DNA of 64,000 nucleotides from an uncultured Sterolibacterium sp. (GTDB taxonomy: Bacteria; Pseudomonadota; Gammaproteobacteria; Burkholderiales; Rhodocyclaceae): assembly GCA_964521075.1 (NCBI GenBank), contig CAZFPI010000002.1:4548-68547 (forward strand), in the 5' to 3' direction. Each line of letters begins with the position of its first letter. Within the stretch, counting starts at the first letter, position 1. This document shows positions 35,755 to 40,810 of the stretch, one piece after another. Position numbers and translations under genes: made by a program. The notes beneath the pieces are model-generated. The model saw nothing but the letters and a program-made list of their open reading frames with translations. It did no database searches and had not been told where the DNA came from.

Positions 35755-37434
35755 ATGACCACACCACAAGACAGCACCACCTATGATGTCATCGTCGTCG
35801 GCTCGGGAGCCGGTGCCATGCTCACCGCCGCGCGCGCCCACGATCTGGGGCTTTCCGTTCTCGTGGTCGAAAAGAGCGACAAATACGGCGGCACATCGGC
35901 GGTTTCCGGTGGCGCGATCTGGATTCCCAACAACAGCCAGATGAAAATCAAGGACAGCTACGACGACGCCCTGGCCTATGTCAAAGCCGCCACGCGCGGG
36001 CTTGTTGCGGAAGACCGTCTGCACGCCTATCTCGACAGCGCGCCGCAGATGGTCGAATACATCAACAGCAAGATGACACTCAACTACTTCCCCTGTCATC
36101 GCTACCCCGATTACTACCAGCACCTGCCGGGCTCCCGCCCGGGCGGGCGCACCATGGAACCCAATCTTTTCGATGCCTCCCTGCTCGGCGAAGAATTCGA
36201 CAACCTGCGCCTGTCCTACAACGGCACGCTCCTGATGGGCAAGGCCAGCATGACCGCCACACAAGCCCACGTCATGCTCTCCAAACAGCCTGGCTGGATG
36301 CTGCAGGTCATGAAAACCCTGGGCCGTTACTTCCTCGACATCCCCTGGCGTCTCAAAACGAAGCACGACCGGATTCGCGGTCTGGGCAACGCCATGGCCG
36401 CCGGCCTGCGCCACGCCCTTCTGGTTCGCAAGGTTCCGCTGTGGCTGAACACGCCTTTTGAATCACTGACCACCGAAGGCGGCCGCGTGACCGGCATCGT
36501 CGTCAAACGCAATGGCCAGACGCTCACGCTCACGGCCCGTCGTGGCGTTGTCCTCGGCGCGGGCGGTTTCGAGCGCAACCAGCAAATGCGCGAACAATAT
36601 CTGCCCAAACCCAGCAAAGCCGAATGGAGCGTGACCCCCCCGCACAACACCGGCGACACCATCCGCGCGGCCCAGGCCATCGGCGCGAAAACCGAGCTCA
36701 TGAACTGGGCCTGGTGGACACCCTCCATTCATGTGCCAGGCGAGCCCTATCAGGTGGGCCTCTTTGCCGAACGCAACCTTCCCGGCTGCATCGTGATCAA
36801 CGGCCAGGGCCAGCGTTTCGTCAATGAAGCCTCGCCCTATCTCGAATTCGGCGCGGCGATGTACGCGGAAAATGACAAGAACGGCAAGGGTGTGCCCTGC
36901 TGGCTGATCTTCGATGCCAAATTCCGCTACAACTACCCCATGGGCCCGCTCATGCCCAGCCAGATCGCCCCCGACCGCAAATCCTGGCTCGGCAAGGTGT
37001 ACTGGAAAGACGACACCCTGGACGGCCTGGCCAAACAAATCAACGTCGACGCCGCCGGCCTCAAAAAGACGGTGGAACTCAACAATGAATACGCGCAAAG
37101 CGGCAAGGACAAGGACTTCAACAAGGGCAGCAACGTCTTCGACTGCTACTACGGCGACTGCAACGTAAAGCCCAACCCCTGCATCGCCCCCATCCTCAAG
37201 GCCCCCTTCTACGCCATGCGCGTCGATGCAGGCGACATCGGCACCAAAGGTGGCCTGCTCACCGACAAGGATGCCCGCGTTCTCGACCAGAACAATCAAC
37301 CCATCGAAGGGCTGTTCTGCATCGGCAACAATTCCGCCTCCGTTATGGGCACGGCCTACCCCGGCGCGGGCGGCACACTCGGCCCGGCCATGACTTTCGG
37401 CTTCCGCGCTGCGAACTTCATCGCAGGAAAGTAA
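35755..37434 (+). CDS. 3-oxosteroid 1-dehydrogenase (KstD/AcmB)-like flavoprotein
   Basis: 559 aa from the internal ATG. Sequence includes YDVIVVGSGAGAMLTAARAHDLGLSVLVVEKSDKYGGTSAVSGGAIWIPNN...GDIGTKGGLLTD...GLFCIGNNSASVMG. Substrate unknown. Confidence 0.75.
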   Translation: MTTPQDSTTYDVIVVGSGAGAMLTAARAHDLGLSVLVVEKSDKYGGTSAVSGGAIWIPNNSQMKIKDSYDDALAYVKAATRGLVAEDRLHAYLDSAPQMVEYINSKMTLNYFPCHRYPDYYQHLPGSRPGGRTMEPNLFDASLLGEEFDNLRLSYNGTLLMGKASMTATQAHVMLSKQPGWMLQVMKTLGRYFLDIPWRLKTKHDRIRGLGNAMAAGLRHALLVRKVPLWLNTPFESLTTEGGRVTGIVVKRNGQTLTLTARRGVVLGAGGFERNQQMREQYLPKPSKAEWSVTPPHNTGDTIRAAQAIGAKTELMNWAWWTPSIHVPGEPYQVGLFAERNLPGCIVINGQGQRFVNEASPYLEFGAAMYAENDKNGKGVPCWLIFDAKFRYNYPMGPLMPSQIAPDRKSWLGKVYWKDDTLDGLAKQINVDAAGLKKTVELNNEYAQSGKDKDFNKGSNVFDCYYGDCNVKPNPCIAPILKAPFYAMRVDAGDIGTKGGLLTDKDARVLDQNNQPIEGLFCIGNNSASVMGTAYPGAGGTLGPAMTFGFRAANFIAGK

Positions 37435-37513
37435 GCCCAGAAACCCGGGGAACCCAAGGCACTGTGCCCCCCGGCCCTCCGCCGGGGCGAGGTATCAGCC
37501 GCCCTTCACCCCC

Positions 37514-38857
37514 TCACCAGGCCCAGTACGGGCCCTGGCCGATGGAGGTGTTGCGGTTCTCGATGGCAACGAAAACATCGCGGCCAAAGAAGAAAGGCAA
37601 GCCCCAGTCGAAGCTGTTGCCGTCGAGCACTTCCGTCCCGCCAACCGTGACCGCCCGGACGGATGCCGACAGACGATCCGGATTCTCCAGCGCGAAGCTG
37701 ACAACCTTGCTGAGGCCGCTGCGCGTCAGCTGCGTGGCAGACAGATTCAGCAAGGACGGCGGACAATAAAAATCCGTGGCGCGGGAGCAAACGGGGATGG
37801 AGGTATCCATGAAAAACAGCGCATTCGAGCCACTGTCGATGAAGCTCGCCGTCATGGTGCGGCCCTTGTAGACCGTCGTGAAATTACCCCGCGCATCAGT
37901 GGCGAAAACCGTAGCACTCCCTGGCTGATTATTCGTCCCGGTTCCGATGCCGAAAATCAACGATCCGGCCAGCCGCGCCACCCCACCGGCAGGCACGGCG
38001 GGCAGACGCACCAGCACCCCGTTGTTGTTGCGCGAAAAAGCCGTCACCGGATTTTTCGCCTGGCGCGCGCGCGGCAGAGCCGTCGGTGTACAGGCATTCC
38101 CGCTGCAAGCGTAATACACCCCGGGAATCGCCCGGGCTTCGCACGCCACGCCGCAATCTTCCGCAAACAGGCCGATGCCCAGAATCCCCTTCGCCCCCAT
38201 CTCAGCCACCGTCCGCCAGCCGGGCCCCACACTGCTGCAATCGCCGGGGGCCACCTCTGGCACACTCGAATCCCCGATGATCTGGACGGGCAAGGCACTG
38301 GCCAGCTCGCCCGCAATCCGCACATCCGCCGAGCGCATGGCCCCCCAGGTATGCCCCGAGGCAAACTGGCCACAGGCACCGGCGAGTTGCCCGGAGGGGG
38401 TTCTGACTTCCGGCAAGGCCCAGGGAGCCGCCAGTGCCCGGCCGATCAGGCGCAAACCGGAAGAACCGGTATCAACCAGAACGTGGTCGATGGTCTGGCA
38501 GTTCTGGCTGCCCGGCACACAAACCGTCACATCGACAAATAGCGCATTGATCGAAGCACTGCCGAAGGGGCCGCCGTCGATGGAGATCGGTGCGACATTG
38601 GTGAGGGAATCTGGCGTGGGCGCAGGTGCGGGGGCAGGTGTCCCCGGTGCAGCGGGTGCATCGCTGCCGCCCCCGCCGCCATTGCAGGCTGCCAGTAAAA
38701 AACACAGTGCCCAGGCGGCAAGAAAGCCAAGGAAACGATGACTTATTCCGTTCGCCCTGAGCCTGTCGAAGGGAATCTCCTGTAATAACAAGGGCTTCGA
38801 CAAGCTCAGCCCGAACGGATCTGATTTAATCAGTGCCTCCCTAAAGCGCATCGGCAT
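37514..38857 (-). CDS. DUF3443-type lipoprotein with pepsin-like (A1 aspartic protease) signature motifs
   Basis: 447 aa with a lipobox (LLAAC at about residue 57). Motifs are VDTGSSGL (D129), GILGIGL (about 224), IDSGSNALFF (D341), and C-terminal LPFFFGRDVFV. The start is uncertain (ATG at 38857 or 38851), and the pre-signal extension is long. Confidence 0.7.
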   Translation of the reverse strand: MPMRFREALIKSDPFGLSLSKPLLLQEIPFDRLRANGISHRFLGFLAAWALCFLLAACNGGGGGSDAPAAPGTPAPAPAPTPDSLTNVAPISIDGGPFGSASINALFVDVTVCVPGSQNCQTIDHVLVDTGSSGLRLIGRALAAPWALPEVRTPSGQLAGACGQFASGHTWGAMRSADVRIAGELASALPVQIIGDSSVPEVAPGDCSSVGPGWRTVAEMGAKGILGIGLFAEDCGVACEARAIPGVYYACSGNACTPTALPRARQAKNPVTAFSRNNNGVLVRLPAVPAGGVARLAGSLIFGIGTGTNNQPGSATVFATDARGNFTTVYKGRTMTASFIDSGSNALFFMDTSIPVCSRATDFYCPPSLLNLSATQLTRSGLSKVVSFALENPDRLSASVRAVTVGGTEVLDGNSFDWGLPFFFGRDVFVAIENRNTSIGQGPYWAW

Positions 38858-38866
38858 CCTCCCGGC

Positions 38867-39313
38867 TCAGTGAATTCCGGCGGGATCAAACCCCGCAGGC
38901 AGCATGGCCGGTAACCACGCCCGCCCCGTGAAGGCGCGCATATGCCCCCCCGAGAACAGCACCAGATCAGGCCGCTGAATCACGACCTGCGAACGCCCGG
39001 CCATCGGCAGTCTGGCCGTCTCGGCGACAAAAACATCGAAATGACTCCCCAGCAATTCGCGCAGATCCGGCATGAACGGCCCGGCCCAGGCCAGCGCGAA
39101 CACCCGCCCGCCTGCCGCCACATACTCGTGCACCACGACACCATTGGCCCGGCTCGTCGTCTGTACGCTGTAATCCGCCCCGGCGGGCGTGGCGAAATGG
39201 CGGGTCTCGTCGCTGGCCCCAGGGGCATCGCCCAGGGCGGCCAGGCAGGTTCCCGCGAAAAGCGGCAAGCCCAGAAAGATCAGCAGCTGAAAAATGGAAC
39301 GCAGAAATGTCAC
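38867..39313 (-). CDS. DUF2844-like secreted protein
   Basis: 148 aa with a signal peptide (IFQLLIFLGLPLFAGTCLA). It lies 9 nt upstream of the DUF3443 gene. The family call is from memory of a recurrent DUF2844-DUF3443 pairing. Confidence 0.55.
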   Translation of the reverse strand: MTFLRSIFQLLIFLGLPLFAGTCLAALGDAPGASDETRHFATPAGADYSVQTTSRANGVVVHEYVAAGGRVFALAWAGPFMPDLRELLGSHFDVFVAETARLPMAGRSQVVIQRPDLVLFSGGHMRAFTGRAWLPAMLPAGFDPAGIH

Positions 39314-39475
39314 AAAAATCCCCTCGTCATCGGCCGATCCAAAGACATCAACAGGTGTGCATATTACGCCACAGCGTGACGCAATTCACGCAAGCCTGTT
39401 CTGCCTGCCACTAAAGTTATGCCCGCTCCAGACGTATGAGTAATCAAGACCGGACAAACATCAAAGGAGAACGAA

Positions 39476-39736
39476 ATGTTGCACCTGGCTCTGGCCTCCC
39501 AAAGCCCCTCCCGGCCAAGCTCGCAGGAAAAAGCGCGCGACGAACGCAGGAATCTGATTCCGCAACTGCACCGCCTGGCCGATGAGCTGGCCATCATCCT
39601 GCAATCCGGCCATGCCGCGCAAGCCCGCCAGCTGACCCGGCAACTGCTCATGCCCCCCATCGCCTGGGGCTTTCTCGCCGCCTGCCTGCAGAAAAAACAG
39701 ATCCCGGCAGAGATGATCGAAGGTTTGCTGTCCTGA
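39476..39736 (+). CDS. Small hypothetical protein (86 aa)
   Basis: It has a strong SD sequence (AAAGGAGAA) 7 nt before the ATG. I recognise no family. Confidence 0.35.
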   Translation: MLHLALASQSPSRPSSQEKARDERRNLIPQLHRLADELAIILQSGHAAQARQLTRQLLMPPIAWGFLAACLQKKQIPAEMIEGLLS

Positions 39737-39763
39737 GCATTCAGGCAGGCAACGATTCAGACG

Positions 39764-40810
39764 TCATGCCATAAGGGAACGGTAGCGGTATCGCCCGTCG
39801 GCATCCTGAAAACGCTCGAGCCTGCCTTGTCGGGCCAGATGTGTCAGATGCGCCAGTGCTTCGCCCATGGCCATCATCTCGTCCATGGGAGCGTCGATGG
39901 CGCGATGGGCAAAAAGCTGGCGGGAGGCTTCGTAAGCGGTGGGCGTGGCGGTGGCGCAAATCCGAAAGAGGGTGTCGAGCTGGTTTTGGTGGTGGCGGTG
40001 TAGCTGGGCCACGCGGGTGGCCAGGCCGCGATAGGGCAGGTCGTGGGAAGGCAGGATCAGCGTGTCTTCCGGGAGCTGGCTCAGACGATCCAGCGAATCG
40101 AACCAGCCAGCGAGCAGATCGGCTTCGGGTTCAGTCGGCAAGACGCTGACGTTGGAGGTGATGCGGGGCAAAAGCTGGTCACCGGCGATCAGCACGCCTT
40201 CTTCGGCGCAGTGGAGCAGCATGTGTTCGGTGACATGGCCTTCGCCCAGATGAAGTTGCCAGCTTCGCTCGCCCAGCCTGAGCGTTTCGCCATGACGCAG
40301 GCGGCGGAAGCTGGCGGGCGGATCGCTGACCAGTTTTCCGGCGGCGCAAAGCATGGCGTAGATGGCGGGCAGGCGGTCATCAGGCATGCCCGACCGGTAA
40401 AAATACTGCCGGTGCGCCCAGGGCAGTTCGTCGCCCTGCCGGGTGTGGGTGGCCAGAACACGCAGGGTGTAATACTCGCCGTGGCTGATGTAGAAGGGGA
40501 CTTGCAGCCGGTCGATGAGCCAGCCTGCAAGGCCCGCGTGGTCGAAGTGATGATGGGTGCACAACACGCCCGTGAGCGGGCAGCCCGCCAGCGGGCCGTC
40601 AAAGAGCTGCACCCACAGCTGGCGTGTGCGCTCGTCCCCGATGCCGGTGTCGACGAGCAGCCAGCCTCCATCATCGCGGATCAGGTAAAGGTTGATGTGG
40701 TCGAGGGCCAGCGGCAGCGGCATCCGCAGCCATTTGACGTTTGGCGTGAGATCGAACACCTCCACCCCGGGCCGGGGTGGTTCGGTGCAGGGGTAGTGCA
40801 GGGTGTCCAA
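39764..40810 (-). CDS. MBL-fold metallo-hydrolase
   Basis: 348 aa with the HxHxDH motif (LCTHHHFDHAG). It has a TTG start 2 nt after the upstream acyl-CoA dehydrogenase stop. Confidence 0.8.
   Translation of the reverse strand: MDTLHYPCTEPPRPGVEVFDLTPNVKWLRMPLPLALDHINLYLIRDDGGWLLVDTGIGDERTRQLWVQLFDGPLAGCPLTGVLCTHHHFDHAGLAGWLIDRLQVPFYISHGEYYTLRVLATHTRQGDELPWAHRQYFYRSGMPDDRLPAIYAMLCAAGKLVSDPPASFRRLRHGETLRLGERSWQLHLGEGHVTEHMLLHCAEEGVLIAGDQLLPRITSNVSVLPTEPEADLLAGWFDSLDRLSQLPEDTLILPSHDLPYRGLATRVAQLHRHHQNQLDTLFRICATATPTAYEASRQLFAHRAIDAPMDEMMAMGEALAHLTHLARQGRLERFQDADGRYRYRSLMA

Follow-up and report, generated by a model that had tools for sequence, protein, structure and literature searches.

The subject of this report is a pair of genes in a 64,000-nt stretch of DNA (the window) from the genome of an uncultured Sterolibacterium sp. 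(GenBank assembly GCA_964521075.1, contig CAZFPI010000002.1, positions 4,548 to 68,547 of the forward strand). The pair encodes a lipoprotein of the family DUF3443, in which a first-pass annotation had read the motif set of pepsin (family A1), and a small secreted protein of the family DUF2844. As described below, DUF3443 is predicted to adopt a pepsin-like fold and carries catalytic motifs that are conserved throughout the family, and DUF2844 is its coupled neighbor. The two genes and the ribosome-binding site between them are:

37514..38857, reverse strand: DUF3443 gene, a 447-aa open reading frame (ORF) encoding a lipoprotein with a predicted bilobal pepsin-like domain
38867..39313, reverse strand: DUF2844 gene, encoding a 148-aa secreted partner, with a GTG start at 39313 and a signal peptide ending CLA/ALG
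38858..38863, reverse strand: Shine-Dalgarno sequence GGGAGG for DUF3443, read from the sequence, 6 nt before the ATG at 38851

Both ORFs were found where the first-pass annotation had placed them, on the same strand and with the same lengths. Each is the only copy of its family in the source genome. The Pfam match of DUF3443 (PF11925) scores 427.1 bits (expectation value [E] 6.7e-128, model positions 4-367 of 367, gathering score 25 bits), and that of DUF2844 (PF11005) scores 117.4 bits (E 5.2e-34, model positions 3-128 of 130, gathering score 22.4 bits). The DUF2844 GTG lies 6 nt beyond a Shine-Dalgarno GAGGGG at 39325-39320. At the junction, the DUF2844 TGA (38869-38867) is followed by GCC-GGGAGG, by an ATG at 38857 and by a second in-frame ATG at 38851. 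Because GGGAGG abuts the first ATG but is 6 nt from the second, the true start of DUF3443 is probably 38851. The 9-nt spacing reported for the pair, correct from the first ATG, would then become 15 nt, and the product would be 445 aa long, as is the database cluster representative (P0001). Residue numbering throughout is that of the 447-aa ORF.

Four pepsin hallmarks had been read in DUF3443, and all four are present at the codons and with the spacings given for them:

38447..38485, reverse strand: N-lobe catalytic motif HVLVD129TGSSGLRL, with D129, T130, G134, L135 and R136 invariant; strand 120-129, turn and strand 133-138 in the model
38165..38197, reverse strand: first psi-loop motif GAKGILGIGLF (G221-F231), with G224 and G227 invariant; G-x-L-G-[IV] occurs in all divergent homologues
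37811..37846, reverse strand: C-lobe catalytic motif SFID341SGSNALFF, with D341, G343 and N345 invariant
37556..37603, reverse strand: second psi-loop-type motif GLPFFFGRDVFVAIEN (G419-N434), with G419, P421, F422, F423, G425 and R426 invariant; kept in divergent homologues

The codon arithmetic agrees: D129-S133 is encoded by 38473-38459 and D341-S344 by 37837-37826, and the G221-F231 motif and D341 follow D129 by 92 and 212 residues, respectively. Invariance was scored in an alignment of 35 sequences, with homologues at 46-77% identity, in which D129, T130, G134-L-R136, G224, G227, D341, G343, N345, G419, P421, F422, F423, G425, R426 and ten Cys residues are identical in 35/35. The first-pass annotation had staked its reading on family-wide conservation of the Asp motifs, and the family does conserve both of them, together with the two psi-loop Gly motifs. 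The patterns D-[TS]-[GA]-S and D-[ST]-G-[ST] are both present in 120/120 close database homologues and in all 14 full-length divergent homologues from genomes, down to an E of 2e-48 against the family profile; a fifteenth, a fragment at a contig end, retains the second motif. Of 80 homologues in named genomes, 79 have both motifs, and the remaining one is an ORF broken upstream of the first. At one locus in a Steroidobacteraceae metagenome-assembled genome (MAG) (L101, 1501-2805), the DUF3443 frame is interrupted before the first Asp motif, through a frameshift or an assembly error. When lobe is aligned with lobe by hhalign, similarity is confined to 15 residues around both Asp motifs; according to Rawlings and Bateman, the lobes of pepsin are alike only around the two Asp motifs (PMC2761423).

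The family is large. A profile search of 1.84 billion representatives returned 2,809 DUF3443 clusters (at 50% identity) at E<=1e-3 and 1,536 at E<=1e-30. Members in named genomes come from Duganella, Massilia, Ramlibacter, Collimonas, Paraburkholderia, Trinickia, Neisseriaceae, Steroidobacteraceae, Competibacter and many Acidobacteriota. Distribution is patchy, with DUF3443 above the cut-off in 22/251 genomes of the order and in 6/301 of the class. On alignment evidence, an active-site signature kept across about 2,800 clusters and at least two phyla is the mark of selection on the active site. Many members are longer than the one described here. In a 578-aa example (P0018; locus L015, 5872-7734), profile positions ~13-66 are matched three times in tandem before the protease domain, and in P0305 (1793 aa) and P0307 (984 aa) the DUF3443 domain stands at the end or start of a very large protein. 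Public records name these proteins "DUF3443 domain-containing protein," apart from one Joint Genome Institute (JGI) record, "predicted aspartyl protease." A literature search found no mention of DUF3443, DUF2844 or IPR021847, and its matches to "PF11005" were Plasmodium gene names.

The first-pass annotation had proposed a pepsin-type fold as the point on which its reading could be checked. An AlphaFold2 model of DUF3443, built on the family alignment, has a mean confidence (predicted local distance difference test [pLDDT]) of 84.3 and a predicted template-modeling (TM) score of 0.78. Across the domain, from about residue 90 to 447, the pLDDT is above 90, with blocks of 10 residues scoring 84-98, and only the leader and the tether behind the lipobox are of low confidence. 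A Foldseek search of the PDB with this model gave 478 matches at E<=1e-3. Every one of the first 50 is a family A1 enzyme, with a probability of 1.00. The best is endothiapepsin (1epq, E 1.8e-11), and the set includes Candida SAPs, tick cathepsin D, rhizopuspepsin, BACE1, plasmepsins and porcine pepsin (5pep). The alignments cover about 400 columns at 10-16% identity, with a TM-score normalized by target of 0.45-0.61 for nearly all of the top 50. The predicted fold is as had been proposed, and none of the refuting conditions that were computed for the first reading came out against it. In the model, each catalytic Asp sits at a strand end followed by a tight turn and a strand (120-129/133-138 and 333-340/347-348). 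This secondary-structure context agrees with a putative juxtaposition of D129 and D341 in a cleft. One further element of the model is of interest here:

38315..38386, reverse strand: beta-hairpin 158-181 (strands 158-165 and 168-181), with the tip S167-G-H169-T-W171-G172; W171 and G172 invariant

From its spacing, about 40 residues after D129, this hairpin may be the equivalent of the pepsin flap. At the candidate position for pepsin Tyr75, 78 scored relatives have Y (47), F (16), V (7) or other residues. That position, two residues before the invariant Trp-Gly, is His169 (codon 38351-38353) in this protein and its closest relative, and Tyr or Phe in 63/78. A His in the putative flap might shift substrate binding or pH behavior.

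Upstream of the domain lie the signals for export and anchoring:

38684..38695, reverse strand: lipobox L55-A-A-C58, with Asn at +2; the LxxC and the Gly run behind it are conserved, with L55 and C58 each in 90% or more of the aligned sequences
38600..38683, reverse strand: Gly/Pro/Ala-rich tether, residues 59-86; pLDDT below 50 for residues 55-70 and 78-84, a region of variable-length gaps in the alignment

The sequence FLLAAC58, placed after a hydrophobic core, matches the pattern [LVI][ASTVI][GAS]C. The LLAAC lipobox noticed in the first reading is present, as are ten invariant Cys residues besides C58. By the usual sorting rule, lipoproteins with no Asp at +2 go to the outer membrane, and because the +2 residue is not Asp, DUF3443 is most likely tethered there. 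The ten Cys suggest five disulfides, which would place the protein in an oxidizing, extracytoplasmic location. DUF3443 has no prosegment: Cys58 is followed by a disordered Gly/Pro linker of 28 residues, and the first strand of the domain begins at residue 88.

The partner is predicted to be a well-ordered globular domain. The AlphaFold2 model of DUF2844 (pLDDT 90.3) has four strands, one long helix and three strands. Its conserved blocks are GTVVHEY, VFAxxWxGPxMPDL and SGGHMxAFxGRAWLPxxLPxG. E63, W76, G123, G130, A132 and P139 do not vary, and D83 and H124 are each found in 90% or more of the sequences. Searching PDB sequences with the family profile produced no match. Weak fold candidates (adenovirus fiber head, fatty acid-binding protein [FABP], roadblock/longin and Ugi-2) were mutually inconsistent and were rejected.

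Gene order ties the two families closely together. In the 251-genome sample of the order, DUF2844 is present and adjacent in 21 of the 22 genomes with DUF3443 above the cut-off, and DUF2844 occurs alone in none. It lies directly upstream in all five DUF3443-positive genomes of the class sample. Across 80 named genomes, from Burkholderiales to Acidobacteriota, it is upstream in 77, downstream in 1, masked by Ns in 1 and lacking in 1, that is, paired in 78/79 informative cases. In 74/76 loci, the stop of one gene and the start of the next are -20 to +30 nt apart, most often with an overlap of 4 nt. A comparison of three other genomes showed no other conserved neighbors of the pair. DUF2844, whose co-occurrence with DUF3443 the first-pass annotation had only suggested examining, is thus a near-obligate, translationally coupled neighbor. 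Strict pairing at coupling distances indicates, as far as gene order can, that the two proteins are made 1:1 and are directly linked in function, probably by physical contact. Among the divergent cases, the 22nd genome of the order sample (G400; locus L018, G400:C21, 2160-3866) has a 143-aa secreted ORF just downstream of DUF3443 that scores 19.5 bits against the 22.4-bit DUF2844 cut-off. Together with locus L019 (G347:C1, 1316-3038) it belongs to one AT-rich genus with small genomes in which the order is reversed, DUF3443 first and the partner downstream. In this genus the partner is missed by Pfam DUF2844 (19.5 bits) or barely found (E 1.5e-9), and Pfam-based counts therefore slightly understate the pairing. 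At a locus in a Ramlibacter MAG (L041; DATJJL010000295.1, 1252-2562), no DUF2844 lies within 1.5 kb and the upstream gene encodes a short-chain dehydrogenase; this DUF3443 could be a second, unpaired paralogue.

The pair is transcribed in situ. Zero-mismatch metatranscriptome contigs from sludge cover DUF3443 (e.g., 37462-38483) and DUF2844 (e.g., 38920-39353) in four runs from at least three studies. In the same runs no contig covers 37300-37386, the 3' end of the adjacent KstD-like gene, which argues against DNA carry-over. The contigs break at a 117-nt repeat within the DUF3443 leader, so that they cover the two genes separately and not their junction. The repeat is the following:

38729..38845, reverse strand: 117-nt hairpin repeat, similar to miniature inverted-repeat transposable elements (MITE) or repetitive extragenic palindromic (REP) elements, in frame and without a stop; it encodes residues 5-43, an extension of the signal-peptide n-region

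The closest relative (P0002, 76% identity) lacks the 39-residue stretch 5-43, and the n-region of the lipoprotein signal is abnormally long owing to the repeat. Seven near-full copies (86-94% identity) and several fragments lie elsewhere in the 2.6-Mb genome; the repeat folds at -45.7 kcal/mol, and its translation contains a string of the "PFDRLRANG" type. Related copies are very abundant in sludge metagenomes, where the depth rises from about 5 to more than 3,000 across the repeat. Zero-mismatch contigs enter it from both sides in four independent DNA metagenomes (activated sludge, wastewater and wetland), in which no empty site was seen. Because both junctions recur in this way, the insertion is real and widespread in the population.

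We favor the view, and consider it the probable one, that DUF3443 is an outer-membrane-tethered, disulfide-stabilized, two-lobed aspartic endopeptidase acting through D129 and D341, and that it is made with a dedicated, co-translated periplasmic partner that is most likely a folding helper and/or inhibitor. The pair would then form a self-contained two-gene envelope module. DUF3443 would be exported by its Sec/lipoprotein signal peptide, lipidated on Cys58 and hung on its tether of about 28 residues, and it would fold into a disulfide-rich two-lobed pepsin-type domain that has no prosegment. Each lobe would contribute one catalytic residue, Asp129 (DTGS) or Asp341 (DSGS), to activate a water molecule and cleave peptide bonds, with the hairpin 158-181 serving as the flap. 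DUF2844, translated from the same message in a coupled, 1:1 manner and secreted separately to the periplasm, would bind DUF3443 and, as folding helper and/or inhibitor, replace the prosegment until the enzyme reached its site of action. Family membership, the predicted fold, the conserved motifs, the coupling of the genes and their transcription in situ are what the data show; catalysis, localization, physical binding and the role of DUF2844 (inhibitor, folding helper or subunit) are inferred.

Several observations weigh against this scheme. No member of the 35-sequence set matches PF00026 (Asp) at E<=1. An hhalign comparison of the family profile with porcine pepsin (a query identical to PDB 1f34_A over 326/326 residues) gave a probability of 0.5%, with the DTG stretch alone aligned. 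Searches of all PDB sequences with phmmer and with a profile by hmmsearch returned noise and no A1 match, a weak match to TbpB being the only one to DUF3443. With no sequence route to pepsin, the claim of homology therefore rests on the predicted structure and the motifs. The structural match itself is moderate, with a TM-score of about 0.6 and a root-mean-square deviation of 6-8 Å in the model alignments. On the supporting side, sub-threshold Pfam matches are to other aspartic-peptidase families only: Asp_protease_2 in 6/35 (best 8.7e-4), gag-asp_proteas in 4 and PE-PGRS_C in 2. The PHROGs library gave no match and NCBIfam only a sub-threshold match to a lipoprotein tail. The first-pass annotation had asked whether the family already belonged to the pepsin clan: by sequence it is not in PF00026, but the predicted fold and the motif pattern are pepsin-like, and DUF3443 is best described, on the strength of the model, as a separate family of the pepsin clan that can be recognized only from its structure and motifs. 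At the candidate flap position, His stands here in place of Tyr, and the residue varies in the family. The habitat is near neutral pH, and classical pepsins need acid. Reportedly, the C-terminal domain of the mycobacterial PE_PGRS16 has a pepsin fold with DTG/DSG and showed no activity in vitro. As to the partner, Foldseek matched the DUF2844 model to nothing in the PDB at E<=1e-3 (best E 0.049) and to no known inhibitor or chaperone. Mature DUF2844 has an isoelectric point (pI) of 6.2 here and is not basic in the manner of a prosegment. A basic, prosegment-like partner had been considered from the family medians (8.5 for DUF2844 and 4.6 for DUF3443, whose mature pI is 5.5 here), but in view of the 6.2 in the source organism this idea was rejected and charge complementarity is therefore not general. 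Finally, export of DUF3443 in this organism may be reduced by the 39-residue insertion.

Strict pairing and translational coupling would fit equally well a stable, non-inhibitory subunit of an active pepsin-fold protease, such as an activator, a substrate-recruiting adaptor or a surface-placement factor. DUF2844 has polar residues of its own that might serve such a role (the invariant E63, and D83 and H124, each present in 90% or more of the sequences), and its well-ordered globular domain (pLDDT 90.3) and its pI of 6.2 are unlike a basic prosegment peptide. On the other hand, its fold matches none of the known adaptors, Lol factors or surface-export factors, the pair is joined by no further conserved gene (a transporter, for example), and the enzyme has no other visible latency mechanism; we regard this subunit model as rather unlikely. 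The absence of catalysis altogether, with DUF3443 as a pepsin-fold receptor or inhibitor-like scaffold and DUF2844 as its ligand or co-receptor, strikes us as improbable. Non-catalytic pepsin homologues exist among eukaryotes (the TAXI-I xylanase inhibitor and the pregnancy-associated glycoproteins), the fold alone is no proof of catalysis, the flap Tyr is not conserved, and the Gly/Pro tether after the lipobox recalls the N terminus of the surface lipoprotein receptor TbpB; the reportedly inactive PE_PGRS16 domain points the same way. In the known non-catalytic homologues, however, catalytic residues are lost or altered, whereas DUF3443 keeps both Asp, the next Thr/Ser and Gly, and both psi-loop Gly across its clusters.

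Independently of how the family works, the copy in the source organism could be impaired, its gene decaying and the repeat lowering translation or blocking export. The repeat places 39 mostly charged or polar residues, absent from P0002, before the hydrophobic core, and its strong hairpin lies some 20 nt past the start codon; the stretch directly ahead of the core offers no other in-frame ATG, GTG or TTG. However, the insertion is in frame without a stop, every invariant residue is kept, and the same allele is found in four independent metagenomes of different studies and is transcribed. Moreover, Sec signal peptides tolerate long n-regions. Impairment of this copy is accordingly a doubtful proposition in our judgment, if somewhat less so than a non-catalytic family. 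The tethered aspartic protease with its dedicated partner is the reading that we carry forward.

The surroundings of the pair contribute little to its interpretation. The pair converges on two KstD-like flavoprotein genes, and a metallo-beta-lactamase (MBL)-fold gene that ends an igr-like operon lies 450 nt upstream on the same strand. The first-pass annotation saw the pair as interrupting a catabolic region carried by the other strand, which is half right: the KstD-like genes are indeed opposite, but the igr-like operon is on the same strand. A functional tie to the surrounding steroid-catabolic genes was considered and rejected, since the pair has unrelated housekeeping neighbors in three other genomes. 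A horizontally acquired island was rejected as well: there is no composition break, the GC content being 0.61-0.65 at the pair and alike in its flanks. Searches of 37300-39900 for RNA elements, promoters and terminators found none above chance; the nearest to a terminator is:

37436..37449, reverse strand: weak hairpin resembling a terminator, within the 79 nt between the DUF3443 stop and the convergent gene, in a count not above that of shuffled sequences

The metatranscriptome contigs stop at 37462-37479, near this hairpin. Zero-mismatch metatranscriptome contigs (e.g., 39357-39663 in run X26) also cover the 450 nt that separate DUF2844 from the MBL-fold gene (39314-39763). They could reflect transcription that reads through from the igr-like operon, an extended 5' leader or a small gene missed in annotation; an 86-aa (+) and a 98-aa (-) ORF there match no Pfam family.

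Two-lobed pepsin-type proteases are textbook eukaryotic enzymes. To our knowledge, few bacterial ones have been described, and these are rare and either cytoplasmic (the shewasins) or restricted to mycobacteria (PecA). If DUF3443 is active, about 2,800 clusters from Burkholderiales to Acidobacteriota would make up a large envelope-anchored bacterial branch that sequence-based annotation has not seen, and its regulation, by a dedicated partner protein in place of a prosegment, would be of a new type. It would also bear on the question, raised by Rawlings and Bateman, of when the two-lobed architecture arose (PMC2761423). As a bolder extension, which we offer as possible and no better than tentative, the pair could be a split zymogen, in which DUF2844, with a fold of its own, supplies the prosegment functions of folding and latency in trans to an ancient and purely bacterial lineage of two-lobed proteases. 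The duplication and fusion behind two-lobed pepsins would then be older than eukaryotes, DUF3443 would be a new peptidase family of clan AA, and DUF2844 would be a new family of inhibitors or chaperones. Proposals about the family can be tested with standard methods, since culturable, non-pathogenic hosts such as Duganella, Massilia, Collimonas and Paraburkholderia graminis carry members of it. The window's own addition is modest, namely one more member with in-situ transcription, the leader repeat insertion and quantified coupling distances.

Compared with eukaryotic A1 enzymes (PF00026), DUF3443 shares the predicted two-lobed beta fold, a D-T/S-G-S/T motif with a hydrophobic-hydrophobic-Gly motif in each lobe, a modeled hairpin about 40 residues after the first Asp, where the flap of pepsin sits, and a presumably extracytoplasmic, disulfide-bonded character. 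It differs in having no significant sequence match, no prosegment, a predicted lipid anchor with a tether, and no conserved Tyr at the candidate flap position. The two Asp are about 212 residues apart, as opposed to 183 in pepsin; the five predicted disulfides are family-specific and at positions other than pepsin's three; and the family is bacterial only, with a near-obligate, separately encoded partner. Closer in taxonomy are shewasins A and D, which are likewise bacterial, bilobal and prosegment-less with a two-Asp dyad (PMC2761423, PMC4814920). The shewasins are proven pepstatin-sensitive enzymes and true PF00026 members (PMC2761423, PMC4814920), have no signal peptide and stay mainly in the cytoplasm (PMC4814920); in 2009, Rawlings and Bateman counted bacterial pepsin homologues in only seven species (PMC2761423). 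In contrast, DUF3443 proteins are predicted to be exported and lipidated, are Cys-rich and far more numerous, and have a partner gene.

Like DUF3443 as we picture it, PecA is a bacterial aspartic protease of the cell surface whose protease domain is pepsin-like (PE-PGRS_C, PF20729; PMC6819658). PE-PGRS_C is also the only bilobal Pfam family to match DUF3443, at 14.8 bits against a gathering score of 33 bits (E 0.018; residues 122-246, the N-lobe). PecA is secreted by the type VII pathway via its PE domain and is not a lipoprotein (PMC6819658), and it has no partner of the DUF2844 type. The retropepsin-like APRc of Rickettsia (PMC4140852) and secreted enzymes of Pseudomonas aeruginosa (PMC12239564) belong to the aspartic peptidase clan too, and they work in the envelope or outside the cell. 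The weak matches of DUF3443 to Asp_protease_2 and gag-asp_proteas fall at the first DTG. The retropepsin-like proteins have a single lobe and must dimerize, whereas DUF3443 has both lobes in one chain.

For the arrangement of the genes, the closest parallels lie outside the clan. In AprA/AprI of Pseudomonas, staphopain/staphostatin and lipase/Lif, a secreted hydrolase is encoded beside a small, beta-rich, dedicated guard or foldase. The operon logic and 1:1 coupling of DUF2844 and DUF3443 match such pairs, and the analogy would be a functional one, the enzyme classes being different; PDB searches showed no fold or sequence similarity of DUF2844 to AprI-, staphostatin- or Lif-type partners. Set beside all of these systems, DUF3443 appears as a lipid-anchored, prosegment-less and partner-coupled bacterial family of the pepsin clan.

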